Notes: generated from the letters alone by a model not told the origin. A stretch of 32,000 bases of DNA from Candidatus Saccharimonadota bacterium (GCA_963706795.1 OY970170.1:1230001-1262000); one strand, 5' to 3'; shown: positions 7,987 to 32,000, counted from the first letter of the stretch. Made by a program: numbers and translations.

Positions 7987-8024
7987 AATCTCTAGCACAT
8001 TCCCGTGCTAGAGATTTTATTTTA
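7985..8024. terminator. Bidirectional terminator hairpin shared by convergent genes
   Basis: A perfect 14-bp stem, AAAATCTCTAGCAC (7985-7998) / GTGCTAGAGATTTT (8005-8018), with a 6-nt loop and T-rich flanks. It overlaps both stop codons (TAA 7984-7986 and TAA 8022-8024). Confidence 0.75.
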
Positions 8025-11000
8025 CTTCTGTATATCTTTCCCTTCCTTGATCTTGTCTACTGCAGTTTTGGATGCATCTCAGACAATTGGGGTTCGAGTT
8101 CTGGCTGAGTCTACAAGTTTTTGGTGTGCCTCGAGTTCTTTTGCAGTATTTGCTGCTGCCTTTTCTGAAGCTTTCTGCGCGATTTGCGCTTCGGCTTCTG
8201 CGGCAGTTAAGAGTTGAACTGGATGAAGCTCAGATGGAGCAGCATCAATCACTTGTACTCCATTTCGTACTTCAACGGTACGTTTTACTTTACCATTTCA
8301 ACGTATTTCATCAAATAGGTAGCTTCTGCGACCATTTATAAGTTTACCAGAAGCATCGAATGTTCCGGATTCGACCACCATTCCTGTACCAGTATCATCA
8401 CGTCGTCTTCGGATTCCATCGGTGAGATTGCCATTTACATCAAAATTTCAACGCTCTTGGAGATTGTGATTTACAGTACCGTCGTTATTTTTAGCATACC
8501 GAGTTCCAGCTTTGCCTGTGAGTCCATTTGGATGAAGCTCACCAATAAAGAGCGTGTGATTATTTTCGTAGCGCTGACTCGTTGTTGCCTCATGTGGCGA
8601 GACATTTGTTGGGGCTGGTGGCACAAAAGGGACTCCGAGGAATTCAGCATGATTCTCGGGAGGACGCGGAGAATTTTCTGGCTCGTATCTCACAAATTTT
8701 CCGTCCTTTATTGCATAGTGGGCATGTGTTCAGTTTGCATTTCGCATACTCACAAGACCATCCCAGAGGATCCCATAGTTATAATTTCCAGTTTCAAATC
8801 GTTCAAAGGTGGCGGTTCCTGATCTCGATTCACCTTCTAGGAGATTTCCTTCCTTATCAAAACGCCCCTTCTTGTAGCTCTGAGGGTTGACCGTGCCATC
8901 AGCATGTTTGTCATAGAGCGTTCATTCTTTTGGCATTCCATTTTCGTATGTTTTGCCCTCAAAATGAAATCGATCACCGATTTTTGGCTTAGAAGAAAGT
9001 CCTTCGGATTGACGTGCATATGCGTATGGTTCTGGGCCAGTACGTGCGTTTTCTGGAGTAGTATTTCGAGGTTCAGGACGACTCGCACTTGGTGCTGGTT
9101 CAGAATTTGGACGCATTTCTACAACTGCGATTCCTCCGTCAGGAGTGCGCTTTACGCCCATCATTTTATTAACACCACCGGTCGCTGTACGGAAAGCCGC
9201 CGCCATGATGAATGCTTGGGCGATTTGTTCTGGCGAATATGAGAACTTGTCATCAAAGGCAAGTTTAAACGCAAGTTGACTTCCGATGCCGGCAATATTG
9301 AGCGCGGCTCCGTCGATAATAGCTCACGTACCAAATCGTACGAGTCCATTGCCCATACGACTCACCCGCCCAAGCATGTTATTTCCAGCAAGCACTTTAG
9401 TTACACCACCCAACACTCAAGCAAAGAGGATCGAATCCCCAAGTCCACGCCATGAGTACATATTTGTATCTTCTTGTGCAGATCTTGCAGCACCGTGTCC
9501 AAGCTCAAAAGCAGCTCATTTTCCGATGAATGTATTGCCTGCTTTCATTCCGTAATTTGCGAGCTTTGCAAAACGCGTAGCCTGAAGACCAGTGGAAGCG
9601 ACATTTACAATTGCCGTACCTAGGCCGAGGGTCATCATTCCTGCAGCGAGAGCAACTGATTCAATCCCAGCCATATGCAAGAACTCTCTAAATGAGCGCG
9701 AAGAAGCATTAAATGTACCCGTTCCGAGAATCGAGGACGCCATATCGAGCTCAGAATCTTTTTCGTAGTCTCAATTCCAGTCGACATTTTGATTCAAAAA
9801 GGCTCTCAGATATGCAATGCGGAATGCCTCATCGAGACCCCGCTGCATATGGACTGATTCTGCTTTGTTTAGAAGCTCGCTTTCGGGTTTTGGATCATTT
9901 GTCTGCGCCTTGTATGCACGAACATATGATGCGCCATTCGCCACCCAATCTTGTTGGAGCGCCTTTTTGACGGACTCCATCTCTTGGCGGATTTCTTTTG
10001 AAGCCTTTGCCTGATCTGCGACATTGAGAGGCTTCGCAAAAGGAATCGTCTCGCCGAGTTCGATCTTGGAGATGAGCGACTCTGCATTGGTGATATTCTT
10101 TGTATGACTTCGTGCGATCTGTGAAACTACGAGATCATATTGCCCGATACTGTCTTTGATGAGTTTATAGAGTGTAGCGCGTCGCTGTACGGGATTTTTG
10201 TCATTAGAAAATGCTGACATCCAGTGCCAAACAACTCATTTGTCTGGCTCAAGAATATATGTAATTTTCTTGGCAAATTCGTTGATATCACCTCATTTTA
10301 TAACGTATTCGTCCACGAGTTTCCAGGCCTTAAGCGCTTGGGATTGCTTATTTTGGTACTGTGCGCTGTATGCCTCAAGAAAAATCGCCATATCATCAGC
10401 CCAGCCAATTCGACTTTTTTGCTCTGGAGAAATCTGAGCTTCGGCTCACTGTTTTGCAGCATCTACATAATTTGCATGCCAGATAACTTTTTCGGTACCA
10501 TTCTCACCAATGAGATAATATGCACCATCTCGCACAACCATACCGATTGCAGGAGCACCGAGAACTTTGAGTGCCTCAGACTGTGTAGCTGGCGCGCTCT
10601 TAAGTGGAGCAGCAGGAGCCTTTTTTGGTACTGAAGCCTGAGGTACAGATGGAGTAGCATCTACCTTTGGTGCAGGCTTTGCAAGAACAGCAGGAATAGA
10701 AACAGGTTTTTGCTCAATTTTTTGAGCATCCTGCGAAGCAGGCTTTGCAACCGAAGTTGGTGTAGGAGCAGGAGTTGGAGCTTTAGGAGTAGCAACTACA
10801 TGGGGAGGAACAGAGGCAACTGGCGCACTCTTTTGCGCTTTTGTTTGATCAACATTAGAAGTCTTAGGTTTTTCTCCGGCCTGCTTTTTGAGGACTTCAA
10901 CGAGGCTCCCAAAAGTTTCGGGTCCAGGAATGCCATCTACTCGGATTTCTTCTGCAATCTGAAATTCTTTAATCGCGTGCGTGGTTTCAGTTCCCATCAT

Positions 11001-11252
11001 CCCATCAATTCCATGCTCAGGGAGTTTGTAACCAAGAGTCACCAGCGTCTTTTGGATAATAAGGACCACTGCAGCGCTATCTTTAGGAGAATCTGGACGA
11101 TGAAAAGGCTGATTTTTATACTCAGCGAGCTTTGTAAGCAAAAACTCATTGGTGAAGCCTTGGATAGCTTCTTTTACGTCCTGATCTTTTTCGAGATTGA
11201 GACCGGTTTTTACCTGCTCTTTGACCCAGTTTGGGCTGTGCTCAATAGACAT
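8022..11252 (-). CDS. Large (1076 aa) multidomain envelope protein: N-terminal peptidoglycan-binding domain, Pro/Ala/Lys-rich linker, Gly-rich hydrophobic central region, C-terminal MORN/YwqK-like repeats
   Basis: Track fragments ending at 11252, 10220, 9743, 9206 and 8693 are all in the same frame. They are linked by 12 in-frame TGAs (10446, 10293, 10236, 9771, 9516, 9417, 9324, 8922, 8730, 8448, 8298, 8079), and the stop is TAA 8022-8024. A PG_binding_1-like stretch reads AVVLIIQKTLVTLGYKLPEHGIDGMMGTETTHAIKEFQ..RVDGIPGPETF. The linker reads KPKTSNVDQTKAQKSAPVASVPP...PKKAPAAP. The central segment is GIESVALAAGMMTLGLGTAIVNVASTG...GVLGGVTKVLAG...GAIIDGAALNIAGIGS. The C-terminus has repeated G-x-x-x-x-x-[YF]-x-x-x-G-x-[LV] units, for example GKTYENGMPKEGTLYDKHADGTV and GRFDKEGNLLEG. 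Confidence 0.75.
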
Positions 11253-16883: not shown

Positions 16884-18404
16884 CTACGCGAGATAGTTCT
16901 CCCACTTCGCAATTCGGCCATCAGTTTCAAAATATTCAAATTCTGCCCATTTGGACATTACTTCCTTATCCATGGAGAGTTTTACAATGGCTCCGTCAGA
17001 CTGGAGTAATTCATCGATAGTTTTTGTGGCACATGAAGGATCGAAGAGATCAATCCCATGTTTCTCCAAAAGAATTTTTACAAGGAAATCGAGCCGCTTA
17101 TGACAGATATATGTTGGGCTTTTTGAATGCTCTCTGAGCTCGGCTACGGTCTCAACTTTTTTTGGAGTTCTCGCATATGCACGACGCTTGTATTCGAGCC
17201 AGCTGTAGGGATCTGGATATTTCATGGATTCACCGAGCGCTTTTTGTTCCGCCTGGATACGAGCAATTTCGAGCCAAGAAGCATCAGAAGCCCCATCCTG
17301 AAAGCGTGATTGAATCATTGATATTTTTGCGTCCATAGCCATATACGCGTGATACTGACTCACAAGCTTATCTACGCGCTCCTCGGATAATGCCACAAAT
17401 GCCTCAATAGTATCTGGAATCATAGGAGAAGAAATTGATTGGATTGTGTGTGTAATTGAATGGTCACTCACTTGCTCAAAAATGAGTATTTGCGAAGGCG
17501 TCATGGGGCTCACAGTTATAATATTGAGATATGGAGCCACGCTTGTGTGCTTGGAATAGACGAAACTTCCGTGAACAAAATCAAATTCGGTTTGCCCGAT
17601 TACACCTTTTGCACGCATGACATTTGTTCCAAGAGACGCGATGGCCAGATCAAGATCCTGCCGAGAAAAATTCGCATGCAACTCAAAGCTTCTCGTGAAT
17701 ACTGGCGCCTTTTTTGTAGCTGATCTGGTATTCATATGTGAGGTCGGAGCAGATGCACTTCTCAAAAAACTCGGCTTTGATTCGGGCTTTTTAGGGAGAT
17801 GATCGAGTAGTCACAAAAGGGATTCGTAATCCTGCTCATGTGGATGTGATTCGAAGGATTCTTGACTCGATCAATCGATCTTTCTGAGTTGTACGATCGG
17901 AGCAGATGGAGCGAGTCGACCTATCCATTGCAGAACATTGTCCGAATTCCCCTCAGTCCACGTGAGTCCGACGATATCCGCAGTCCTCATCTGAGTATCC
18001 ATCACCACTCTCTCCGCCTCAGAACGAAGTGGAAAATGCTCGACATCCGAGAGCACAATCGTCGTCACACGAAACCCAGTTCGCTTCATAAGAGCAAGAA
18101 TGGCAGGTCATTCGGCAATTCCACTCGGCTCAACAATCAGGAGTTCTGAGGAACCCTTCGCTTGATGCAGGGCATTGGAGAGAGATTCCATGTCTTCGCA
18201 GCAGATACACCCCTCGGTGAGCGCGGTCACGTCAGCATCACTCAAACGAGCCGCATCGATATTAATTGATCCAACGTCATTGACGATAATTTTGGTTTTC
18301 TGCTTAAATCGCGAAAGCATCCATCGGATTAGTGACGTTTTTCATGATCCAAGTGGCCCAAGGACCAATAGGGCTCGCGAAGTATCGGGACTGTGCATTG
18401 TCAT
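16884..18404 (-). CDS. COG0523-family (CobW/ZigA/YeiR-like) G3E GTPase metallochaperone with an approx. 190-aa C-terminal extension
   Basis: Fragments 18108-18320, 17871-18089 and 16884-17765 share one frame. ATG 18404 gives MTMHSPDTSRALLVLGPLGS-[TGA 18342-18344]-KTSLI (Walker A). It continues IIVNDVGSINID, the GCICCE (CxCC) metal motif, LLIVEPSGIAE (Walker B-like), and a CobW_C-like NVMRAKGVIGQTEFDFVHGSF. Stop is TAG 16884-16886. Confidence 0.85.
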
Positions 18405-18409
18405 ATCCA

Positions 18410-19228
18410 CTACAGTGATCAAAGAATACAAGAATTCACAACACCAGACGGTGGATTACAATACATCACTTCTGCGTATCCATCCGGAAGCCACGAAGTT
18501 TGCATCTCCGGATAGAGAAATGTTCTGTAACCGAATGCTGTACGAAACAATACGGTCTGTCCTGACCTACTCGAATCCAAGATAGATTGAGCAATTATTC
18601 GTTTTGTCACTGCATCACATCCCGCAAGTGCAGCAACAAAAATACAGTCGTACTCTCCATAGCCAGAGAATTTTTCGGCTGACCCATGGAGAATTCCAAC
18701 ATTCTCTGCGAGCCCTATTCGGCTGATGAGCAGACGAGAGAGCTCACAGGCATTTTCATTGCTATCAAGACAATCAACCCCTTCTATAAATGCATCCTGC
18801 ATTAATATTGGAGAGAGTGGCAGTGGTCCTGATCCCACAAAAAGCGCCCTACGTGCAGAACCGAGCCCACGTTCTTTTCGGTACTGATGGATCAATGATA
18901 TTTCCCATGTACTGAGCAACCGATAATTTTGCATATACGGAAATATCTCAAGATCTTTGAGACTCAAAGGGTCTTTATTTTTAAGAAGCAAATTTGCCCA
19001 ATGATGCTCGAGAAGGGATTCTCACTCTGAGCACAGAGACTGCATTTTGGAGCGCAATGAGCGAGTCGGGATATCCCAAAAAAGCTCAGAAATATCCCCG
19101 TCATGCCCCATAACCGTCTCTACCAAACGCGAGAATTCACCATTTACCGTCGGCGAAGGATGAAGCGAATCCTCCCGTGAAAGCCGATCATATATCGTCT
19201 GAATTACTTCAATACTACTATGCGTCAT
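18410..19228 (-). CDS. Nicotianamine synthase-like (NAS/CntL family) SAM-dependent aminobutyryl transferase
   Basis: Fragments 19022-19228 and 18419-18991 share one frame. The joined sequence aligns block by block with the NAS family: LCSE-[TGA 19022-19024]-ESLLEHHW, EIFPYMQNYRLL, ALFVGSGPLPLS, YDCIFVAALAG, LFRTAFGYRTFLYPE, GVVNSCIL. After TGA 18419 come two codons, then TAG 18410-18412. Confidence 0.9.
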
Positions 19229-19631
19229 GCCCCGCTTTTGTTACACAAGAAGGACAATTTCCCACATGCGTCTCACGATGGGATTCTAGGATATTTCCTG
19301 CACTATTTTTGAAGTGCTCATCACTAATACTCCCACATCCATGACAGTGAGTGAGTTCAAAATGCCTCGATGGTTCTCGACCATTTCGGATCTCTGCACA
19401 GAGTACAAATGACTCCACGCCATGCTCATAGAGAGCATGGATAAGTCCCGCATCCCGAAAATCAGAAATACCTCGATAGAGCGTCGCAAGATTTGCACCT
19501 GTACGAGATATGTAAGCTTCTTTGAGCGAATCAAAGTCGCACGCATTCTGCTCAGATAAAATCTCAAGCAACGCCACTCGCGACTTCGTTGCACGACATC
19601 AGACAGAATGAATAATTGAGGAATGGTCCAT
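19218..19631 (-). CDS. Fur-family metalloregulator, probably Zur
   Basis: ATG 19631 gives MDHSSIIHSV-[TGA 19599-19601]-CRATKSRVALLEILSEQ...ATLYRGISDFRDAGLI (winged helix). The C-terminus has two CxxC pairs (HCHGCG ... NCPSC) typical of the structural Zn site. Stop is TAG 19218-19220, overlapping the NAS start by 11 nt. The Zur assignment rests on gene context. Confidence 0.75.
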
Positions 19632-20715: not shown

Positions 20716-22845
20716 CTACGAAACTTCTTCTCATTCTGGTGGAGTATTTTTAGCATTCATGATCTTATGGATCCTATTCCCTACTATCGTTCCGAGGAGT
20801 TCTTTGTAGCGTTTTCTTTCGGGATTTACACGGGTCTTGCGACTTGGGAGAGCAGAATGAATAACAAGATCAAGTTTTTGCTCCTCGGTCATCGTCTTTT
20901 TGTAGTTCACCATATTGCGACTCGCGCGACAAGCAAAGGCGTCAATTCGGCCGTAAAAACCTGACTCTTCAGCTCGGATACGGAGATCATCCAGGGTTTG
21001 TCCACTATTCGTATTGTCATCGAAGATGAGTAGCCAGTTCTGATCTCGCATTTGATGCCTCGTATCATCATCAATAATAGACTTTTGCATGACCTCGGCG
21101 ATGGGATAGTCAGCCAGCTTGAGGAATGAATTGGCATTTTTGACGTCATAGATCGAATAGACGATATTTCAGACATTCGCGAGCACCTGGCCACTATTCA
21201 CTGACTTCGAAAAAACGTATTTTGCATAGAGCCCAGTGAGCGCGCCACCATAGTTTACGCCCATGATATGCAGGACATCCTTTGTAGGCTTATAGCCCTT
21301 TTGGATAATCATATTAAGTGCATTTTGGGCAGTCTTGATCATCACGAGTGGATCGTTTTCTTCTCTATAGAGACGAATGATCTTTTTGAGTGCCTTCTCA
21401 TGGACGATTGTATTTTGAGGCTTCGTCGTTTTTTGTTTCTTTTGAGCTCGCTTCTCGCCGTCAGCCACATAGCTGTCCATGAGCTTAAAATATGACTCGA
21501 GGAGTTGTAAAATATCTACAAATTCAGCACGCATCATATCGGTTTTACCCGTGTTGATCTCAGGGAGTTTATTTGGGATTTCTCAAACAATCTTCACATG
21601 TGCTATGTCGTTGTTTCAGAGCATTATATCCATCGAATACCCCACATGACTATCGAGCATACTCAATAAGGCATAATGTCAGTCTTCGTCTCATCGAAGA
21701 GTTTCCTGAAGCTTTTTAAACTCTGCAAATTCGTGCGGACTAGTACTCTTGATATGACGAACTTCATCGCGCTTAAACACGAGACTTCCCTCGTAGTCAG
21801 GATTAAGGAATTGCTCACTATAGAGAAGCTGAGCAGCATTCTGCATGAATGCCAGCATATTAATCTTCGCATCCAAAAGTCCGAGAAGAATCTTCTTCAT
21901 CGACTTATGCGTGTTAATTTTTATATACTTGTTGAAGATCTTGTCTATATCAAGCGCAAAAGTCACCTTCGCATGCTGTAAAAGCAAACTTTGATTCGAG
22001 AGAAATTTGAGAATATGATGGAATAAATGCGCCGTCGGAGTCTTGGCAAAATCCTGGACCATATTACGAAGCTGCTCAAGACCTTGCAGTGTCTGGATTC
22101 ACTGCGTAGTAAAAAGATTGTCTAATTCTTGGTTTGAAGTTTGATTCTTTTTTTTGAGTTTCCGCTCCAAACGTCTCAGATCACCTGGAGCCAAAAGATT
22201 AAAAATATCCCGCGAGAAATCATCCAGATTATGCGTCAGCCCGTTCCAAAGCATCTCTTCGTAATAGGTGCTAAATAGTCGAATATTCTGATCGATCGAA
22301 TTATAGTGAGCCAGGAAATCATGCTTAAAACCATCCATATTTACATCGAGCACATCATGGTCATTGATCGACGAAAACCGCTCCTTGGTATCTACCAATA
22401 CACTCGGAAACTGGAAATAGTATTTTTGGTTTCGAAATATGAGATTGCTGCCATGTTTATAGACAAAATCATTCTTGAGATTGAGCAAATACGCCTCATG
22501 AAGCCAATGAGATCACTCAATCGGGTTACCGTCCTTGTCTAGACTTACAAACAAACCTGTGAGCTCATTTATGTCCTCTTTGTTTAATTTGATAGCTCCA
22601 TCTACATGGAAATATTCTTTAAGGAGTGAATTAATTTCATCACCTGCGAGAACATCCAATGAGCGCTGTTTTATATAATCAGTTATCCCTGTAAGCTTAT
22701 TTTCAAAAGGAATACTGAGCTTTTTAATGCGCTCAGATTCACTCATTTCATCCTTGGAGAGCTCATCTGAGATTGCAAAGAGTACCTCAGGAGTGAGTTC
22801 TACACTTGGCTCGTCAGGAGATGAGACGATATGGAAATTTTTCAT
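20716..22845 (-). CDS. Large (709 aa) protein with an unknown approx. 500-aa N-terminal region and a C-terminal type I phosphoribosyltransferase-like domain
   Basis: Fragments ending at 22845, 22488, 22062, 21537 and 21090 are all in one frame, joined by eight TGAs. The stop is TAG 20716-20718. The C-terminal region carries VLHIMGVNYGGALTGLYAKYVF and the PRPP-loop-like WLLIFDDNTNSGQTLDDL (four hydrophobic residues, D-D, x-x-x-S-G-x-T). Confidence 0.7.
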
Positions 22846-22974
22846 TGGGATGCTAAAATTTGTATTGGTAGATGAGGAGGTTTGTTATTGTAAGGAGAGA
22901 GTGGAATCTTTTAAATCGGAATTTATTTTTGGAAGGAGGAATTAATGAATTGGTAAGTATTGTAAATGAAGAGA

Positions 22975-23015
22975 AACACGGACCATATTCACTCAGCGTA
23001 AATATGGTCCGTGTT
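22975..23015 (-). terminator. Strong hairpin ending the R-M/defence operon
   Basis: A perfect 15-bp stem, AACACGGACCATATT (22975-22989) / AATATGGTCCGTGTT (23001-23015), with an 11-nt loop, 15 nt downstream of the GNAT stop. The downstream T-tract is poor (TCTCTTCATTT). Confidence 0.5.
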
Positions 23016-23029
23016 AATCGACAACATCA

Positions 23030-23500
23030 CTAGTGATCTCAAAGTTTCTTCCAAAACTCCACCGTCGTTTTCTGCATGCCAGCATCTAAATAAAATCGCT
23101 GTGAAAGCTCATTTTCAAAATCTGTGTGGGTTGTGAGGTGATCACACCCTCTTGTTATTAATTCCTGTTCAAGAGCCTGAAAAAGCTTGCCTGCGAAGCC
23201 CTTACCTCGGAGATCAGATCTCACGAATACTTCATCCACATAACCGAGTTTGCAAAACCTATGGTTCTTGCGTTCATGAACCGATCACTGCACAAATCAA
23301 CCCACTTCATCGTTGTCAGTTATCGCCACAAATATAATCTCGTCATCAAGATCGGATTCCTTTAGTGGCAAATAAGGATTTACTCGCTCATGAAAATCCT
23401 GATTTTCTTTAGAAAAAATCTGGGAGCGATAGAGATTGAGCTCATCCATGAGGAGCTGGATTCACTGGATGTCGAATTTGGTGGCTTTGCGGATGAGCAT
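23030..23500 (-). CDS. GNAT-family N-acetyltransferase (156 aa)
   Basis: ATG 23500 gives MLIRKATKFDIQ-[TGA]-IQLLMDEL...FVAITDNDEVG-[TGA]-FVQ-[TGA]-SVHE...GYVDEVFVRSDLRGKGFAGKLFQALEQELITRG. This is the GNAT motif A, R-x-x-G-x-G/A. After TGA 23039 come two codons, then TAG 23030-23032. Confidence 0.8.
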
Positions 23501-23526
23501 TGGGAGAGGTGAGACTGAGATATAAC

Positions 23527-26500
23527 CTATTTTGAAAGCTCTTGAGCTAATAATTCGCTCTGTTCAATCACACGATCAGCCTCAATCTTTGCGAGGTCTG
23601 GTGGATACCCATAGCGCATGAGCACTTTTTTTACCGTGAGACGAAGTTGAGCGCGAACATCATCACGTTTGTTCCAGTCGACTGTAGCATTCTTTCGAAT
23701 GATATCTACGATCATATGGATCAATTCCTTCATCTTATGATCCTCCAGAAATTCTGTCGATGTGTTCTGCGAAAGTATAGAATAAAATGCATATTCTTCG
23801 GGGGTGAGACCAATCTCCTTTGCTCGCATATCCTCAATCCTCATATCGCGTGCAATCTGTGAAAGTTCCTCGATAATCTGTGCTGTATCGAGTTGATTGT
23901 TATGGTAACGCTTAATCACATTTCCAAGCATTTCAGAGAACTTTTTCCCTTGAGCAACATTCTTTTGTTTGCGAACCTTCACCTCCTCAGTGAGAAGTTT
24001 TTTAAGGAGTTCAAAAGCAAGATTTTTGTGCTCCATGTTTTTCACTTCTAATAGAAATTCCTCTGACAGAATCTCAAGTGAAGGAGCTTTGATTCCTGCT
24101 GCTTCAAAAATATCTACCACTCAATCCGAAGACAAAGCTTCTTCGACAATCTGTCGGATCGCCGTATTTACCTCTGCATCACTTTTTCAACCAGTAGGTG
24201 AGAATTTATTGATTCGTGATTTAATAGCCTGAAAGAAGGCAATATGATCCTTGATTTGTTCCGCCGCAACACTCGGTACAGCCATTACAAAGAGTTTTGA
24301 AAGCGCAGACACTTCAGCGAGGAATCGATTCTGTGTATCTTCACTTCGAAGGATGAAGTTTTGTGCAGCGAGCAACACATGAAGCTTCTTTCAGGTTTCA
24401 GCAGTGAAATACGACTGATAATCGAATCCGTGAAACATCTGAGAAACAATCTCGAATTTTGTTCGCATCCCAGCTATTACCTCCGCAATATCCAATACTG
24501 CTTGCCCCTGTCACCCATTGTCCGTATACGTCGACATCGCATTTCGCAGATCTTGTCCGATACCGATATAATCAACAATCAATCATCCTGGCTTATCTTT
24601 GTAAACGCGGTTCACACGTGCAATTGCCTGCATAAGGTTTGCACCTTCCATTTTCTTGTCGATGTACATCGTATGGAGCGACGGTGCGTCAAATCCTGTC
24701 AGCCACATGGACTGTACGATCACGAGTTGCAGGGAATCATTCGGATCTTTGAGCCTAAGGGCTAATGCCTTGCGCTCATCCTTGGTAGTGTGATGTGGCT
24801 GGAAATCTTCAGGATCATCTGTTGAGCTCGTCATCACGATCTTCAAGAAACCCTTCGTAAGATCCTGATCATGCCATTCAGGTCTGAGTTTCACAATCTC
24901 AGTATATAGGTTCACTGCGATCTGTCGTGTCATACACACGATCATCCCCTTTCCTTCGAAGATAGCCTGACGCGCTTCAAAGTGATCAACGATATCCTTC
25001 GCAATATCCCTCAATCTATCTGGATGCCCCACGATACTATCGATCTGTGCATTGCGTTTTTTTGCTTTCTCTTTCTGCTCAGGTGTTGCATCTTCGATCT
25101 CATCGATCGCTATATCGATCTGAGCAACAGCCGCATCGTTCATCTTGATCTTCACAAGTCGACTCTCATAACTAATCGGCACAGTTGCGCCATCTTGAAC
25201 CGCCTGTGCGATATCGTAGATATCCACATATCCACCAAATACTGCAGGTGTAGACTTATCTTCCTTCTCGATCGGAGTACCCGTGAATCCTATGAAAGAA
25301 GCCTGAGGAAGCGCATCTCTCATATACTTTGCATTCCCGTACTTGATCTCGCCATCAAGATCAACCTTTCCCGTGAAACCATACTGACTTCGATGCGCCT
25401 CATCTGCAACCACTACAACGTTTGAACGATCCGTAAGAACCTCGAAAGAATTCTGCCCATCTTCAGGATAGAATTTCTGAATTGTCGTGAAAATAATCCC
25501 ACCACCTGATACTTTGAGAAGCTCCTTCAAATGCGCACGATTATTCGCCTGGACTGGTTTTTGTCGCAGGAGGGAGACACAGTTCCCAAATGTTTGAAAT
25601 AGCTGTTCATCGAGATCATTACGATCCGTGAGTATCACGATCGTAGGATTCTTCATCGCAGGTTCTACAACGAGTCTTCCAGCATAGAAGACCATGGAGA
25701 GTGACTTCCCAGATCATTGAGTATGCCACACAACCCCAATCTTCTTGTCACCATCTTCTGCAGTGGCACGCAAGGTTTCCTTCACTGCCTTCTCCATCGC
25801 GTAATACTGATGATACGCAGCAACTTTTTTGATCTTGATTACAGAGAGCACTCCCGTTTCTTTATTCTTTACTTCTTCAGCTTCAAATACTGTATTGTAT
25901 CTGATCAATTCGAGCAGAGTTTTCTTCTCGAACATTCGCTCCGCCAAGATCTGAAGCTCAGGCAATACCCCATTTTCCTTCTTCTCAGGTGATTTCCACA
26001 CGAGATAACGTGAGAACGGTGCAGAGACACTCGACACTCGTGCATCGAGCCCGTCAGAGATCACGCAAAGTGCATTGTAATAGAACACAGAAGGAACCGC
26101 CTTCTTGTAGTTCTGAATCTGTGTGAAAGCTCGCTCCAATGTAGCATCCTCATCCATTGTATTCTTGAGCTCAACCACGACAAGTGGGAGTCAATTCACA
26201 AACAACACAACATCCAGTCGCTTTTCATTGTTATTTTCCTTTACTACGAACTGATTCACCACACAGAAGTGGTTATTCTCTGGATTCACAAAATCCACCA
26301 AGTTCACACTCACCCCCTTCGACTGCCCATCCGTGAAATACTCCACCACTACCCCATCCGTTAACATCTGATGAAATACCTCGTTGTTCATCATTAGATC
26401 ATCCGAATCAAAGCGACGAATCTTTGAAAGTGCTTCGATTCGAGCAGATTCTGGGATGTGAGGATTGAGACGGTCGATAGATGTAGTTAGTACCGTATCT

Positions 26501-26640
26501 AAAATAACGCCGTCAAAACTCGAACGCATAGGGGTTGAGCTGTATGGAGAGATATCTGGACCATAGAAATACTCGTAGCCCTGAGATTTGAGGAGATCTA
26601 CGAGGTTTTGTTCGATGGAAGATTCGGTAAGGTGGGGCAT
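23527..26640 (-). CDS. hsdR: Type I restriction enzyme R subunit (1037 aa)
   Basis: Five track fragments (ends 26640, 26178, 25695, 24378, 24120) lie in one frame, joined by seven TGAs (26191, 25714, 24583, 24511, 24391, 24187, 24121). Motifs are VLFVN-[TGA]-LPLVVVELK, VVWHTQ-[TGA][12 protein letters not shown] (helicase motif I), [13 protein letters not shown] (DEAH), [18 protein letters not shown], and KPG-[TGA]-LIVDYIGI. The helical C-terminal region is typical of HsdR. Stop is TAG 23527-23529. Confidence 0.95.
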
Positions 26641-26644
26641 AGAC

Positions 26645-27196
26645 TTATATATGAAGTTCTTGAGGTAAGAATCTATTTATTTCATTATCTGACCAAGTAA
26701 ATTCTTCATCTCTATTCTGTTTTCATAACAAAGATAACTGAGCCTCAGTGTAATCAGTATATGTTGTTTGTGAGGATAGTCAGACAATAATTTGATACTG
26801 TTCCTGATATAAATCTCTTCTTCAAATCGTTTCATCTTCGCTCAAACCACCTATAATATCAACTATAAAGTTTTTATATTTATCTCTCAAGTTTAGAAAT
26901 TGCAGTGCAATTTTTTTAAACTCCTGTGCTCTTTGTTCTATAGAAAATTCTTTCTGGAGGAATAAGAAAATTATCTCAGAAACCGTTAATGCAACAGATA
27001 CACCTCCAAAAATATTACTGTCTGGAAATTTAATCTGTAAAATAAGGAATACTAGAATCAAGAAAACATCAATGATGTTTACCCACTTAATCAATCATTG
27101 AACTTTTTCTAGTCTATCACACGCTTTTTCATAAACCTTGTGATTAAAGACGCATTGAGCAAATTGCTGTCTTACCACTGAAAGATTTCTATTCAT
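26645..27196 (-). CDS. SLATT-like two-transmembrane effector protein (183 aa)
   Basis: ATG 27196 lies 11 nt after the nucleotidyltransferase stop. The N-terminal helix is MNRNLSVVRQQFAQCVFNHKVYEKACDRLEKVQ. Two hydrophobic helices follow (WVNIIDVFLILVFLILQI and IFGGVSVALTVSEIIFLFL), then a helical tail EQRAQEFKKIALQFLNLRDKYKNFIVDI. There are four in-frame TGAs (27095, 26822, 26780, 26723). Stop is TAA 26645-26647, 4 nt before the hsdR ATG. The architecture and the neighbouring gene fit the SLATT family. The family call is an inference. Confidence 0.55.
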
Positions 27197-27207
27197 ATTT
27201 TAGAAGA

Positions 27208-28086
27208 TTATCATGTAAATTTTGATCAAAATATTTCCCTCCATTTTTGATTAGCAGAATATTCCTTTGCCTCCGATTCATACTGCATAGCCTCTATCGC
27301 TAAGTTATATGCCAATTTTGCCTTGTACTCAAACTTTCATCCCCTCCATACGTACTGACCACTTCAAGGTGCAAGCCAGTAAGATTTATCCTCATCCTGT
27401 TCTTTAAGGAATTTAAAGAAATCCCTTACCATCCAATCATAATACAAATAAGATTTATCCTTTTGCGCCCAATTCTTCATAAAATGATAGCATAATGTAT
27501 CAATCAAAAGCCCTCACATTGGTACATTCCAATAATCTTTCCATACCCTAGTAATTCTGCATAGTCTTTTTAAATTAAAATTCCAGTCTTCATTCTTCTC
27601 CCTAATTTCCTTAATCTCAGGTTTTGGATTTGTCTTCTTCCAAGAACCTCAATCGTTTGAATCAGGAAAAGTATAACTATCGTCAGTTTTAATAAAGGCA
27701 GGTACTATTTCAAAACAGATTCAATCATTCCAGTTGATTCAAATAACTTGTCCATCCCCTTTTATATGTGTTGTAGGATATGTTTTCTGTAATGATGATC
27801 TAATTGCTTGCAACAATGCAGACTGTCAGTTTCCAGTATAATTGTTATACGTTTCATACAGTGAATCTGGAAGTTGAAAAATTACATCAATGTCACTTAC
27901 ATGTATGTCTGTATCTCTACCATAAGATCATACGTATAGACTATGGCTATATTCTGATTCTGTGGACCAAAAATCTTTATTTAATCTCTTTGTGATAGAT
28001 CTATAGCGTACTGAAATCGTATCTATATTATCAATATCGATACGAATATTATCGCAGAAATTTTCAAATTTAGTTGTAATAGACAT
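27208..28086 (-). CDS. SMODS / CD-NTase-like nucleotidyltransferase (292 aa), candidate second-messenger synthase
   Basis: There is no ORF in the track. The minus frame from ATG 28086 to TAA 27208-27210 has ten in-frame TGAs and no TAA or TAG. The translation contains HSLYV-[TGA 27928-27930]-SYGRDTDIHVSDIDVIFQLP, the pol-beta-fold G-S ... D-x-D motif. It continues GDGQVIGINWNDGICFEIVPAFIKTDDSYTFPDSNDGGSWKKTNPKPE, which supplies the third acidic residue on the strand ending in VP and the W-x-x-TNP block. This is the pattern of SMODS/CBASS cyclases. Confidence 0.75.
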
Positions 28087-28099
28087 AGATTAACAAGAA

Positions 28100-29332
28100 C
28101 TAAATTAAAGATGGTAAAATTTCTCCGCTCATCAACCTTGGCAATAGCTCATCGCGAGTTCTCGAGAGCAATGCTACTTGAGCTAAGTTATTATAGATTT
28201 TTCGAAAAATTGGCTTAACTTTCTCATCAAATCCCCTTACTCTCTCAATATTTGGAACAAGCACCTCAAGTTCTTTTATCATGGTCGAATTAATCGCTGT
28301 GACTATCGATGAAGTACTTCATAGTGAGTTGAAATCCAGTTTCTGAAGATAGCAATATATAAATTCGGTACTCAATGCAGAGTTGCCCTTGATTTTCAGG
28401 TGAGCAATTGCTTCATTTGAGAGCATCTCTTCGGTGGTAATCGTTAGTTTACCGACAGTCATTTTGAAACTCAATATCGTTGTATTGATAGGAATTACTG
28501 AGATATTGAATTTCTTAATTGCCTCATCTATCAGATATTCTGAAGTTTCAAAAATATATGTTTTACTATTTCCGATATCCTTTATAGAAATCCACTTTTT
28601 CCCTGTTGGAGATTTTGAAAACCACTCCGGTTGAATACGAGGAGGAGTTCTTCAGATTGTAATATCAAACTCCGTCCCTAATTTTCCTACTCTCCAACCC
28701 TCCGGCAACTCATCATCTACGCCATACTTCCCAAATAACTCCTGAAAAATTGTCTGCGCAGTTTTCTCAAGTGTCTCATTTTGCTCTCGAAGAAGTTCGA
28801 TCTTATCATCGAAACTTGAAAGTATTTGAGCGATTGCTTGTTGTTCAGGGAGAGAAGGAAGAAGAATAGGATATTCAGTAATTTGTCTCTGGCTTATATG
28901 CGGGATAGATGTTCCAGTATGAACCTTTGCTACATAGGATTCAAAATTCTTATTTAGAATGAGATGTGCTATGAAATGCTGATCTGAGATTCATGGTTTC
29001 CTTCTTAAACATGCTACTCGCTGAGCCAATATTAGTGGCAGTTCTTTTTCTTGAACCATAGACCTATTTTTTCCAACCTTTGATCCATCCATTCAAATTA
29101 CTATGTCATCTTTTTGTAAGAAACACTTTTCCAATCCATCCGTAGAATGATTCCAATACTTCACAATATCCCATCTAAGAAATCATTCCGAGACATTTTC
29201 TCATCTTACGACTCTCAAATTTCAATTCGAATCATATAAATTTCACTTGAATGATTCTCACGTAAAAATATCCACAACCTTCCCCAAAGTCGTCTCCATC
29301 CACCCTTCAGGAATCATTTTTTCATTTCTCAT
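28100..29332 (-). CDS. hsdS: Type I restriction-modification specificity subunit (410 aa)
   Basis: ATG 29332. There are nine in-frame TGAs. Two target-recognition halves are each introduced by P-E-G-W (MIPEGWMETTLGKVVDIFTG and ELPEGWRVGKLGTEFDITIG). The conserved central helix is LPSLPEQQAIAQILSSFDDKIELLREQNETLEKTAQTIF, and the C-terminal one is LLSRTRDELLPRLMSGEI. Stop is TAG 28100-28102. Confidence 0.9.
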
Positions 29333-29333
29333 A

Positions 29334-29804
29334 CTACTTTTGAGGATTACTCATTTGATTAAGTACGCTATCCACCGCCTTTCATGGTAAGTTTATATCT
29401 CCTGTGTTAGTTCATGGAGTGTTTACTTTCTCAGCAATGTTCTCATAATCTGGCGTAACTTTATAATTTCCTCGATTACTCCTATAAAGCTTCCAATTCT
29501 GTGCCCATTCAATCGCAGTATCTCGGAAACTTTTGTCTATCTTACCGTAATTTACAAGTGTCTCTGAGCCTCAAAATCAGATAGTCATAAATGTTACGAG
29601 ATAGGCCACAGTAATCACCCCGACTTTGTTCTTAAACCATTCAACTTTTGTAGTCAGAAGATATGTCAGAAAAACGAGCAAACAAGCGATTCCGATTGCT
29701 ATAAGCCAGAAGATGATCGTGAATACCGCATAAATAATCACCGCGAGGATTACAATTCCTATCACTCATTGTTCTACGAATCTTTCTTTTCATTTTCGAC
29801 CCAT
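29334..29804 (-). CDS. Small membrane protein (156 aa) with 2-3 TM helices and a soluble C-terminal tail, unknown function
   Basis: The frame of track ORF 29577-29765 extends to ATG 29804 and through TGAs to TAG 29334-29336, which is 1 nt before the hsdS ATG. The hydrophobic core is VIGIVILAVIIYAVFTIIFWLIAIGIACLLVFLTYLL ... VGVITVAYLVTFMTI. Confidence 0.6.
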
Positions 29805-29848
29805 ACTACTTTTGGTTATCAGACAAAGGTTTATGCACTTCAAATAAT

Positions 29849-30985
29849 TTATTTCTCCAGGATATCAAAATAAGACCTAAATACGAAGAGTCGATTTCTT
29901 TTGTTGCCAGTGATTTCCACAAGTATGCCAAGCTTCACAAAATCTTGTATGAGATCGTTTGTCGCTTTTGGGGAGAGATCTGTAATCAATTGCACGTTTC
30001 GCGAAGATACGATGGGCTTCTCGAAAAGTTTCTCAAGCAAGGTATGTGCGCTTTGCATCTTCCTTCCAAGAGTGGGAAGTGAATTTTTGGTATGATAGTC
30101 TTTCAGATCTAGGACTGCCTTGAGCGAAAGCGTTGCTTCATTTGCAGTTTGTTCCACTCACTCAAGGAAGAAAAGCACCCAAGAGAGAAGATCGTTTTTC
30201 TCTCTAACCCAGGTGAGCTTGTCGTAGTAGAGGGATTTGTTCTTTTCGAAGAAATCAGATACATACAAGAGTGGTCTATGGAGTATACCGTTACTTACTA
30301 GATAGAGCGGTATCATGAGTCTCCCAGTTCTGCCGTTCCCATCGAGAAATGGGTGTATAGTCTCGAACTGATAGTGAGCTATGGCAATCTTTATGAGATG
30401 AGGAAGTCACACGGCGTCATTATGGAGGAATTTCTCTAGATCAGACATGAGATCACTTACGTGTTCTTGACTCGGGGGTATAAATTTTGCATCAGACAGA
30501 CCCGCACCGCCAATCCAATTTTGACTCGTTCTGAATTCTCAGGGACTCTTATCCCTTCCTCGCACATGAGAGAGAAGGATCTTGTGGATTGATTTAATCA
30601 AGCGGTTTGAGAGTGGGATATTCTCAAGTTCTTCGATAGCAAAATTGAGAGATTCACGATATTGAATAGTTTCCCTCCAGTCATCCCGTTTTTCTGGTTG
30701 GATATCTCATTCATCAGAAAAAGCCTCTTCAATATTGGTTTTTGTTCCCTCTATTCGGCTTGATGTGACCGCTTCCTTCATGACATATGATTGAAGGAAA
30801 AGTTCGATATTTGGGACAAATTTTGAAAAGGAATTGAGCTCACCAAGCTTAAATGATGCGGATTCAAGTTTCTTCTGAAGAAGAGGATGTGAAAAAGTCC
30901 ATTCATGATTTATGGTTTCAGGAAGGAAGTACTTATACTGATAAGCATTTCTCCAAACTCCAGATGTAAAGGTCTCGATCTGCAT
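29849..30985 (-). CDS. Fic-family protein (AMPylase-type; 378 aa)
   Basis: Fragments 30707-30985 and 29849-30157 are in one frame, with four in-frame TGAs. The N-terminal block is [15 protein letters not shown]. The Fic motif [12 protein letters not shown] lies at 30355-30320. The C-terminal wHTH-like region is [25 protein letters not shown]. Stop is TAA 29849-29851. Confidence 0.9.
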
Positions 30986-31025
30986 AGAAGTAAATTATAT
31001 ATTTCTATAATTTAGTTTATCAGTT

Positions 31026-31059
31026 AAAAGTAAAATTACAATATCCATATTTTACTTTT
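31026..31059. other. AT-rich perfect hairpin in the hsdM-fic spacer
   Basis: AAAAGTAAAAT (31026-31036) pairs with ATTTTACTTTT (31049-31059) across a 12-nt loop. The stem is entirely A/T apart from one G:C pair. Its role is unknown; it could be an attenuator, a processing site or a binding site. Confidence 0.3.
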
Positions 31060-31071
31060 GAACGTTATCCA

Positions 31072-32000
31072 CTAAAGCTCAAATCCTATCTTCGCAAGCT
31101 GTCTTTTGATCTCTTCATCGAGTTCTTTCTCTCGTGCCATCTGCTCACCGAGCTTAGTGGTGAGTTCTTTCATCTTTACTTCAAATGGAATCCCATCGTC
31201 AACTGCGTCTACAATCCCAACATATCGACCTGGAGTAAGTACAAATCCATGTTTCTCGATGTCAGCGAGGCTTGCAGACTTACAATATCCTTTCTGATCT
31301 TCGTAGGTATTCCCTTTTCTCCAGTTGTGATACGTTTCAGCGATCTTATTCATATGATCTTCGGAGAGATCTCTATGAACACGATCCTTCATATATCCCA
31401 TCTCAGAAGCATCGATGAAAAGCGTTTCACCTTTGCGCTCTGTTCTCTCACGTCGGAGAAACCAGATACAGGCTGGGATACCAGTATTGTAGAAAAGTTG
31501 TTTTGGAAGCGCGACGATACAGTCTACGAGGTCTGCAAGGACGAGCTTTTTGCGGATTTCTCCTTCTCCACTTGTATTAGATGAGAGTGAACCGTTAGCA
31601 AGAACGGTCGCCATGACTCCATGAGGCGCAAGGTGGTAAAGCATATGTTGAATCCATCCGAAATTCGCATTCCCTGAGGGTGGAACTCCGTATTTCCAGC
31701 GCGCATCGTCTTGGAGGATATCGACTCCCCACTCTGATTGATTGAAGGGCGGATTTGCGATGATAAAGTCAGCCTTGAGATCAGGATGCTCATCACGAAG
31801 AAAAGAGCCCTCTGTATTCCAACGCACAAACTGCGAGTTGATATTACGGATTGCTAGATTCATCTTTGAGAGTTTCCAGGTTGTTTGGTTACTCTCTTGG
31901 CCGTAGATAGTGATATCTTTGATATTTCCCTGGTGTTCTTTGATGAATTTCTCACTCATTATGAACATACCACCGGAACCACAGGCTGGGTCGTAAACAC
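31072..32000 (-). CDS. hsdM: Type I restriction-modification methyltransferase subunit, partial (N-terminus beyond window end)
   Basis: The track ORF 31072-31968 frame continues to the window edge (..[15 protein letters not shown] = SAM-binding motif I). The catalytic motif is [14 protein letters not shown]. It continues [29 protein letters not shown]. Stop is TAG 31072-31074. Confidence 0.95.

Follow-up and report, generated by a model that had tools for sequence, protein, structure and literature searches.

Defence genes nested within larger defence operons have been surveyed in Type I restriction-modification (R-M), BREX, DISARM and Hma systems under the principle of 'guilt-by-embedding', and it was noted there that nearly all embedded copies of PrrC belong to Type I R-M (Payne et al. 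2024, bioRxiv 10.1101/2024.01.29.577857). Other such modules are DarTG2, which in enteropathogenic Escherichia coli occupies the hsdS-hsdR interval and is driven by one promoter controlled by RptR (PMC12255303), and TgvAB, located inside the Type I cluster of Vibrio pathogenicity island 2 (VPI-2) of V. cholerae (PMC11411939). Here we compare these systems with a block of eight minus-strand genes, hsdM-fic-3TM-hsdS-SMODS-SLATT-hsdR-GNAT, found at one end of a 32,000-nt stretch of bacterial DNA (GCA_963706795.1, OY970170.1:1230001-1262000), hereafter the window, in whose positions all coordinates are given. The block is probably a composite, layered anti-phage operon, in which a Type I R-M backbone carries an autonomous SoFic (Shewanella oneidensis Fic) and a minimal Type I CBASS (anti-phage signalling based on cyclic oligonucleotides) in its two junction slots.

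The locus resembles the guilt-by-embedding systems in that toxic or abortive modules are nested co-oriented between hsd genes, mostly between hsdS and hsdR, with variable cargo. It differs from them in holding SoFic and Type I CBASS in both slots together and in having a TGA-recoded host. In the prr locus, prrC is situated between hsdS and hsdR, and the window shares with PrrC/EcoprrI the presence of an abortive-infection module in this slot of a Type I operon; however, there is no sequence or domain relation between the two, PrrC being an ABC-ATPase-like anticodon nuclease that is held latent by the R-M complex. The SMODS and SLATT families were reportedly defined by Burroughs et al. in 2015, and Millman et al. 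are said to have described SoFic as an anti-phage system in 2022. As in Type I CBASS with a two-transmembrane (2-TM) effector, the SMODS cyclase of the window (motifs GS, DxD and E) is directly followed by SLATT_4, and no Cap2, Cap3, HORMA or TRIP13 family was found in the operon with Pfam and PADLOC. In contrast to described Type I CBASS, the cyclase scores below the NCBIfam equivalog cut-offs, it is only remotely similar to the nearest solved structure (E 3e-8), its clade is predominantly R-M-embedded and not free-standing, and its gene contains 10 TGA-Gly codons. The window Fic aligns over its full length with SoFic (PDB 3EQX and 3ZCN) and has the same active site and inhibitory helix, but SoFic is described as a stand-alone protein, whereas the window Fic is embedded and falls below the NCBIfam equivalog cut-off. 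The E. coli SoFic is reported to have a 47-aa downstream antitoxin, AS1 (PMC12249575), while the gene downstream of the window fic encodes a 156-aa protein with three transmembrane segments (3TM) that is tied to hsdS, and no obvious AS1 counterpart is present.

The embedding phenomenon and the family of each module are thus already known. What is new here is that both slots are filled by recognised systems at once, that the host uses genetic code 25 and the cyclase-SLATT cassette is rewritten into it, and that its clade is predominantly R-M-embedded. No paper that explicitly describes CBASS within a Type I R-M operon was found in the searchable literature, and the supplementary text of Payne et al. 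does not contain the strings 'cbass', 'SoFic' or 'SLATT'; an earlier mention is possible, and the claim to priority is a weak one. With this locus, an immune operon that is complete, apparently functional and probably layered is documented from a TGA-recoded bacterium of the candidate phyla.

TGA encodes glycine throughout the window

Translation of positions 22000-32000 with table 11 yielded only short open reading frame (ORF) fragments. When TGA was read as sense, the long-ORF coverage of the window rose from 31.7 kb to 86 kb, and eight contiguous ORFs were found from position 23030 to the window end, all on the minus strand. The cyclase gene has 10 in-frame TGA codons, and the alignment columns under them hold glycine in 85% of cells (119 homologues). 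Seven in-frame TGA codons are present in hsdR, with glycine in 82% of the aligned cells (65 standard-code homologues); four of these columns are invariant glycine, including one in the Walker A motif 'QGSGKS'. Similarly, the G of the nucleotidyltransferase 'GS' motif of the cyclase is an invariant glycine column lying under a TGA codon. Because the homologue columns under the window TGA codons are mostly glycine, they demonstrate directly that TGA encodes glycine, i.e. genetic code 25, which is used across the whole window. In the window host genes, 2-25% of the Gly codons are written TGA. A cyclase with 10 TGA codons at conserved glycines points to long evolution in recoded hosts and would not be expressible in a standard-code cell. 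A database protein listed as '97% identical' (P0001; P-numbers denote cyclase homologues, and L-numbers related contigs or loci) is the same cyclase gene translated with TGA as tryptophan; its contig, from an independent assembly (Logan ERR12037365, L084), includes 3TM-hsdS-SMODS-SLATT-hsdR with 100% protein identity under code 25.

With code 25 and gene starts set at the first ATG, the eight-gene order proposed in an earlier note on this DNA was recovered, its family labels hold in both Pfam and PADLOC, and the junction gaps that it had listed (86, 44, 1, 13, 11, 4 and 26 nt) were reproduced exactly. No Shine-Dalgarno motif was found before any window gene, and this absence, being general, is uninformative on start codons. 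Scans of the whole window identified no tRNA and no Rfam family.

An intact Type I backbone with two embedded modules

The backbone is predicted to be an intact Type I R-M system in the order hsdM-hsdS-hsdR. The Type I N6-adenine methyltransferase gene hsdM (31072-32000) is represented by its 3' 308 codons, its 5' end being beyond the window (Pfam N6_Mtase 5e-89; PADLOC MTase_I 6.5e-120). The in-window part includes the AdoMet motif DPACGSGG and the NPPF motif, has no in-frame TGA and has a GC content of 44.9%. The specificity subunit HsdS (28100-29332, 410 aa) has two target-recognition domains and matches Pfam Methylase_S in two stretches (3e-28) and PADLOC Specificity_I over its full length (up to 5e-76). 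The endonuclease/translocase HsdR (23527-26640, 1037 aa) matches Pfam HSDR_N, SWI2_SNF2/ResIII, T1R_D3-like and T1RH-like_C as well as PADLOC REase_I (1177 bits, residues 4-1036), and its D..ELK nuclease motif, GSGKS and DEAH are all present; it thus has the N-terminal PD-(D/E)xK nuclease, SF2 translocase and C-terminal assembly domain of a Type I endonuclease.

Between hsdM and hsdS, fic (29849-30985) encodes a 378-aa SoFic-type AMPylase that matches Pfam Fic_N and Fic and, over its full length, PADLOC SoFic (3e-118). Its alignment to the SoFic structures spans residues 32-376 (E 2e-40). The protein has the active site HPFxDGNGRxGR, and its N-terminal motif SSRIEG fits the inhibitory-helix consensus (S/T)xxxE(G/N); its score against the NCBIfam equivalog ProtAdlyltaseSoFic is 182.6 bits, compared to a cut-off of 550. 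The 3TM protein (29334-29804) has three hydrophobic segments and is encoded 1 nt upstream of hsdS.

The second slot, between hsdS and hsdR, holds the cyclase and its presumed effector. The SMODS cGAS/DncV-like nucleotidyltransferase (27208-28086, 292 aa) matches Pfam SMODS (4e-51; 173.8 bits, compared to a cut-off of 26.5) and, at full length, PADLOC Cyclase PDLC00786 (7e-139, 460 bits). Its residues G53-S54, D65xD67 and E126 align to the catalytic residues of the solved nucleotidyltransferase 6P8U, while its scores against NCBIfam CBASS_cyclase_b (106.8 bits) and CBASS_cyclase_a (48.8 bits) are both under the cut-off of 200. The GC content of the gene is 32.7%. Located 11 nt downstream, the SLATT_4 gene (26645-27196, 30.1% GC) encodes a 183-aa two-TM effector with hydrophobic segments at residues 32-50 and 61-79, which matches Pfam SLATT_4 (1.6e-24) and PADLOC 2TM Effector (1e-31) and exceeds the NCBIfam SLATT_4 cut-off (72.6 compared to 55 bits). 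The block ends with a 156-aa GNAT acetyltransferase gene (23030-23500; Pfam Acetyltransf_1 2e-13).

All cargo ORFs are intact and retain their catalytic motifs. The 3TM-hsdS-SMODS-SLATT block has a GC content of 30-38%, and 35-56% of its Gly codons are TGA, while hsdM, fic, hsdR and GNAT have 41-45% GC, like the rest of the window. The operon is thus a compositional mosaic, and its central block has long evolved under code 25.

The cyclase-SLATT cassette in other R-M systems

At a threshold of E ≤ 1e-20, 6,627 homologues of the window cyclase were found. Seven close homologues (65-74% identity) were chosen by the length of their contigs and without knowledge of their context, and six of the seven were found within R-M operons, five in Type I and one in Type II; the seventh is alone. 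In the Patescibacteria genome GCA_021734125.1 (P0003, L085) the order is hsdM-Fic-150aa-238aa-hsdS-SMODS-SLATT_4-hsdR. The other Type I loci are arranged as hsdM-hsdS-SMODS-SLATT_4-hsdR (P0002), hsdM-RhuM/Fic-hsdS-SMODS-(SMODS+AGS_C)-SLATT_6-..-hsdR (P0010), hsdM-hsdS-HATPase-SMODS-SLATT_4-hsdR (P0035) and hsdM-SMODS-SLATT_4-390aa-hsdR (P0098). The Sulfuricurvum locus (P0007) reads NgoPII-like remnant-SMODS-SLATT_4-C5 methylase, and the solitary copy (P0109) adjoins an integrase, with no R-M.

HsdM, the cyclase and HsdR of the Patescibacteria locus are 76%, 74% and 73% identical to those of the window, a near-equal divergence that fits inheritance of the composite operon as one unit. TGA occurs neither in frame nor as a stop in nine genes of this locus, and its genetic code is ambiguous. 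In the four other Type I loci the cyclase is 66-73% identical to that of the window and HsdR just 27-33%. As the cyclase is far more conserved than HsdR, the cassette moves between unrelated Type I families, entering the same kind of slot. Cyclase homologues of 41-59% identity occur in varied settings: those of Novosphingobium, Leptolyngbya, Aquimarina, Enterococcus and Bacillus stand free, a Macrococcoides copy within this range adjoins a Type II restriction endonuclease gene, and the copies on Arcobacter and Aeromonas plasmids are embedded in Type I systems. The cassette is AT-rich in every setting (25-35% GC), for example within a Sulfuricurvum locus of 44% GC, and it spans the code boundary, with L088, L089 and L090 using TGA as a stop codon.

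A scan of viral contigs with the cyclase revealed no relatives, and a search for att-like direct or inverted repeats flanking the cassette gave only short matches at chance level; the gaps of 4-13 nt leave no room for such sites. Exchange of the cassette via recombination in the conserved hsd flanks seems more likely. As it is still poorly understood what activates sensor-less Type I CBASS, the finding of one cyclase-SLATT_4 clade in R-M operons in six of seven sampled cases may merit a systematic census.

Several individual loci are described here in their own right. In Sulfuricurvum GCA_049304835.1 (L089, 7788-10500) the cassette (71% identity, 27-30% GC) lies between a 65-aa NgoPII-like remnant and a C5 DNA methylase gene of 45.5% GC, and it seems to have replaced or disrupted a Type II endonuclease gene. 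One hsdS-hsdR slot (L090, 8001-10752) contains tandem cyclases, a 292-aa SMODS protein (70%) and then a 439-aa SMODS+AGS_C protein, followed by SLATT_6. On an Arcobacter plasmid (CP146529.1, L092, 1951-14846) a Type I operon begins with a GNAT gene, which overlaps a truncated hsdS by 4 nt. Embedded in the same operon are RhuM, a cyclase homologue of greater length (431 aa), SLATT, a DUF87 ATPase and an RNA-binding protein, and its GNAT has no sequence relation to that of the window. On a Microcystis plasmid (NZ_CP025929.1, L094, 2451-12343) the cyclase-SLATT pair (59%) is found between genes for a 1124-aa N6-methylase and a 1094-aa helicase-related protein, and a MotA/TolQ/ExbB-family gene follows, so that a multi-gene restriction-like system appears as another host of the cassette.

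Cargo slots of related Type I operons

A scan of metagenome contigs with the window HsdR retrieved 80 related loci (51-83% identity), among which the order hsdM-hsdS-hsdR is conserved. Of 48 hsdS-hsdR junctions, 34 hold 600 nt or more of cargo and 11 are tight (<150 nt); of 28 hsdM-hsdS junctions, 10 hold 600 nt or more and 16 are tight. The earlier note considered it unusual to find a CBASS-like pair and a GNAT stacked in one transcription unit. Cargo at these two junctions is, however, usual in related operons, and the overall layout of the window recurs in the Patescibacteria genome described above. About 43 families are represented among the 74 cargo ORFs, nearly all of which share the orientation of the hsd genes. 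The recurrent ones are typical of defence or abortive infection, namely Fic (7 ORFs in 7 loci, in the hsdS-hsdR slot), Abi_C (7 loci), YhcG/DUF1016 (PDC-S02), PIN_12, GmrSD, RhuM/ORF6N (PDC-S05) and KilA-N (PDC-S22); the PADLOC PDC models we take to be candidates from the published guilt-by-embedding approach. Genes are thus embedded, co-oriented, between core hsd genes, and the cargo varies among orthologous operons. The earlier note held that unrelated passengers in orthologous operons would speak against a coordinated system. Orthologous operons do largely carry different passengers, but these are almost all of defence type.

Only L004, L005 and L046 among the HsdR-related loci are TGA-recoded. 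The closest long relative, L004 (HsdR 82%, HsdM 86%), has RhuM in the first slot and a different cyclase with SLATT_6 in the second, and in L005 a SMODS-SLATT pair (65% and 46%) immediately precedes hsdR (76%). In a further recoded locus, L098, the order is hsdM-3TM-hsdS-[HATPase, TM protein, weak SMODS-like nucleotidyltransferase]-hsdR. The HsdR proteins of L045, L046 and L047 (73-83% identity) align to that of the window in two pieces, about 125-145 codons apart, near window-HsdR residues 226-297, and in L046 the two pieces are in frame; the pattern suggests that an additional domain has been inserted ahead of the helicase motor.

The frequent embedding of the cassette could also mean that the cyclase and SLATT act as a PrrC-like guard, which monitors the R-M complex and fires when an Ocr- or Stp-type phage inhibitor disables HsdMSR, resulting in abortive infection. 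In line with this, the cassette lies in the slot that prrC has in the prr locus, and six of the seven close cyclase homologues are R-M-embedded, in Type I families whose HsdR is 27-76% identical and in one Type II system. Minimal Type I CBASS also lacks a gene of its own for sensing, and for PrrC and PARIS the sensing of R-M suppression is established (PMC12657230). We nevertheless consider such a guard unlikely. The partners of the cassette are very diverse, ranging from HsdR at 27-33% identity to a C5 methyltransferase with an endonuclease remnant and an N6-methyltransferase with a helicase, and the cassette is also found alone, by an integrase or on Enterococcus and Bacillus plasmids, which speaks against a specific protein-protein interface. 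Moreover, the slot accepts dozens of unrelated cargo families, and position alone is weak evidence. No more probable is the related idea that a whole clade of minimal CBASS (a SMODS protein of about 290 aa with SLATT_4) is specialised to R-M operons as a guard that responds when phages inhibit or overload the R-M complex and turns failed restriction into membrane-pore suicide. If true, this clade would be a cyclic-nucleotide analogue of PrrC and would provide the long-sought trigger of sensor-less Type I CBASS.

The 3TM and GNAT genes

The 3TM protein has no match in Pfam, PADLOC or NCBIfam. Its five homologues (57-69% identity) share a near-invariant juxtamembrane block, which argues for a real gene under purifying selection, and the family has 9 representatives in 1.84 billion proteins. 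In the three homologue contigs that were examined (L097, L098 and L099), all TGA-recoded, the gene lies 1 nt before hsdS, in the arrangement hsdM-3TM-hsdS or X-3TM-hsdS, and Fic is absent. As the homologues adjoin hsdS without Fic, 3TM would belong with hsdS, and Fic would be a separate insertion between hsdM and 3TM. A toxin-partner pair of Fic and 3TM, implied by the earlier note, was rejected for the same reason. An AlphaFold2 model of the 3TM family (pLDDT 58.8, pTM 0.25) was too poor for a fold search. In the recoded contig L097 (2289-8634), 3TM-hsdS is followed by an AAA_21/AAA_15 ATPase, a Ser/Thr protein kinase, a reverse transcriptase and HTH-SocA/Panacea, a dense stack of further defence-type genes; this contig ends before any hsdR.

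The best matches of the GNAT protein are AAC(6'), YpeA, Naa30 and RimI-like, all its NCBIfam matches are far below the cut-offs, and it has no PADLOC match. Seventeen homologues (48-61% identity) were found, one of them named Candidatus Gracilibacteria, and in two long homologue contexts a GNAT paralogue adjoins, housekeeping genes surround it and there is no R-M. No GNAT relative was detected by tblastn or with a family hidden Markov model in about 100 related R-M loci. No antitoxin-like partner is adjacent, the upstream gene being hsdR and the downstream element the terminator. A TacT/AtaT-like toxin was rejected on these grounds, namely the missing antitoxin partner, scores below all cut-offs and the non-R-M contexts elsewhere. 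From these comparisons we regard GNAT as a chromosomal neighbour, co-oriented with the operon and sharing its terminator, and not as a conserved part of the defence system, although it is probably on the same transcript as the operon. Of the three toxic or abortive functions that had been placed in the R-M operon, the Fic AMPylase and the cyclase with its pore-type partner are indeed embedded, but the acetyltransferase is generic and no toxin module. The outcomes for GNAT and 3TM are a warning of how readily neighbours become drafted into a "system".

Transcription of the operon

An intrinsic-terminator-like hairpin with a T-rich tail (22962-23015, minus strand), with an 18-bp stem and a 5-nt loop, begins 14 nt past the GNAT stop codon. 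For the hairpin itself (22975-23015, 18 pairs) the folding free energy lies between -33.5 and -35.7 kcal/mol and z between -6.7 and -8.4; none of 200 shuffled sequences was as stable. It is the sole strong terminator-like element on the minus strand: folding is weak at those internal junctions that span 26-86 nt (z = -1.9, +1.4 and -0.1), which bears out the earlier observation that the only strong hairpin follows the GNAT gene, and the remaining four junctions measure just 1-13 nt.

The AT-rich 86-nt spacer between hsdM and fic (30986-31071) includes a weak 11-bp A/U hairpin (z = -1.9; 9 of 200 shuffles as stable) and a promoter-like site, CTGATA-18-TATAAT (31023-30994), that matches the sigma-70-like consensus at 10 of 12 positions and ends 9 nt before the fic ATG. 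Further promoter-like matches were found within the AT-rich SLATT gene. As the total in the whole region (20) does not exceed the expectation from shuffles (26.1 ± 5.1), these sites are only candidates, and the one in the hsdM-fic gap is a candidate internal promoter or attenuator. Co-transcription of the operon is plausible and the most economical reading of this arrangement.

The same internal promoter-like sites agree with a block of merely adjacent genes, made up of several independent transcription units, whose extra genes would have no joint role and be either neutral passengers or insertions in decay. The variation of cargo among orthologous operons, the differing phyletic pattern of GNAT and the mosaic composition would also fit such an origin, but we find it quite improbable. 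The 1-13 nt gaps at four junctions have no room for promoters or terminators, every cargo ORF is intact with its catalytic motifs, and the adaptation of the cyclase to code 25, with its 10 TGA-Gly codons in conserved columns, implies that selection has acted over a long time in recoded hosts. The 3TM family is likewise under purifying selection, and the cargo of the relatives is co-oriented and overwhelmingly of defence type.

A probable layered anti-phage operon

In the composite operon that we favour, the host is a code-25 bacterium of Gracilibacteria/Absconditabacteria type, and the Type I backbone offers two permissive cargo slots. The first, between hsdM and hsdS, holds the SoFic-type, auto-inhibited AMPylase beside the lineage-specific 3-TM gene belonging with hsdS; the second, between hsdS and hsdR, holds a predicted minimal Type I CBASS consisting of the SMODS cyclase and the SLATT_4 two-TM effector. 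As a first line, HsdMS is expected to methylate the host DNA and HsdMSR to cleave unmodified incoming DNA. Should a phage get past restriction, SoFic may AMPylate cellular targets, and separately a cyclic (oligo)nucleotide produced by the cyclase may gate the SLATT membrane effector; either response would halt or kill the infected cell. The modules would be biochemically autonomous, and embedding would provide them with shared expression and with shared inheritance or co-transfer; DarTG2, TgvAB and PrrC are functional precedents for such an arrangement. The most likely start of transcription is upstream of hsdM, and a second one may lie before fic; the transcript would end at the hairpin after GNAT, which would be read through as a neighbour. 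While the gene identities, intact motifs, code and architecture, and the recurrence and variability in relatives, can be read off directly, we infer the enzymatic activities, the defence phenotypes and co-transcription from them.

Five points weigh against this layered operon. The 5' end of hsdM and any promoter upstream of it fall outside the window. Given the internal promoter-like sites, hsdR or fic could have promoters of their own. The cyclase and Fic, which miss the equivalog cut-offs, appear to be divergent members of their families, and the searched literature contains no biochemical characterisation of a SLATT_4 effector or cyclase of this clade. Finally, the high rate of R-M embedding of the cyclase clade could reflect functional coupling instead of autonomy.

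Inverted signalling as in Panoptes, where the cyclase would constitutively make a nucleotide that keeps SLATT closed until phage sponges or nucleases deplete it and the pore opens, is very improbable: a small nucleotide synthase with a 2-TM effector and no sensor or regulator genes is indeed found in Panoptes (PMC12657230, PMC12657218), and the catalytic residues of the cyclase are intact, but the Panoptes synthase is mCpol (Cas10-palm) and not a SMODS nucleotidyltransferase, and PADLOC and Pfam put the window proteins among the CBASS cyclases and the CBASS 2TM effectors.

Other genes in the window

No synteny of the genes flanking the operon was found in the recoded relatives, so that the comparison gave no insertion boundaries for the operon as a whole. 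Seven flanking ORFs without an assigned family gave no convincing PADLOC defence match, and the window thus holds no wider defence island.

Two large minus-strand genes encode apparently repeat-containing proteins, whose features outside Pfam were read from the translations. The protein encoded at 1-1657 (>550 aa, cut by the window start) appears to have a signal-peptide-like N-terminus and then about six repeats of some 90 aa, each with the motif 'W..S.NA..C'; it has no Pfam match, and its gene has one TGA codon despite 52 Gly codons. The 1077-aa protein encoded at 8022-11252 has an N-terminal peptidoglycan-binding domain, its only Pfam match, followed by what seem to be a Pro/Ala-rich linker, a hydrophobic block rich in Gly and Ala, and short repeats at the C-terminus. 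At 16884-19240, also on the minus strand, a CobW/HypB/UreG-type GTPase gene adjoins a nicotianamine-synthase-like gene, and the two could form a metallophore or metal-homeostasis pair in a bacterium with a reduced genome.

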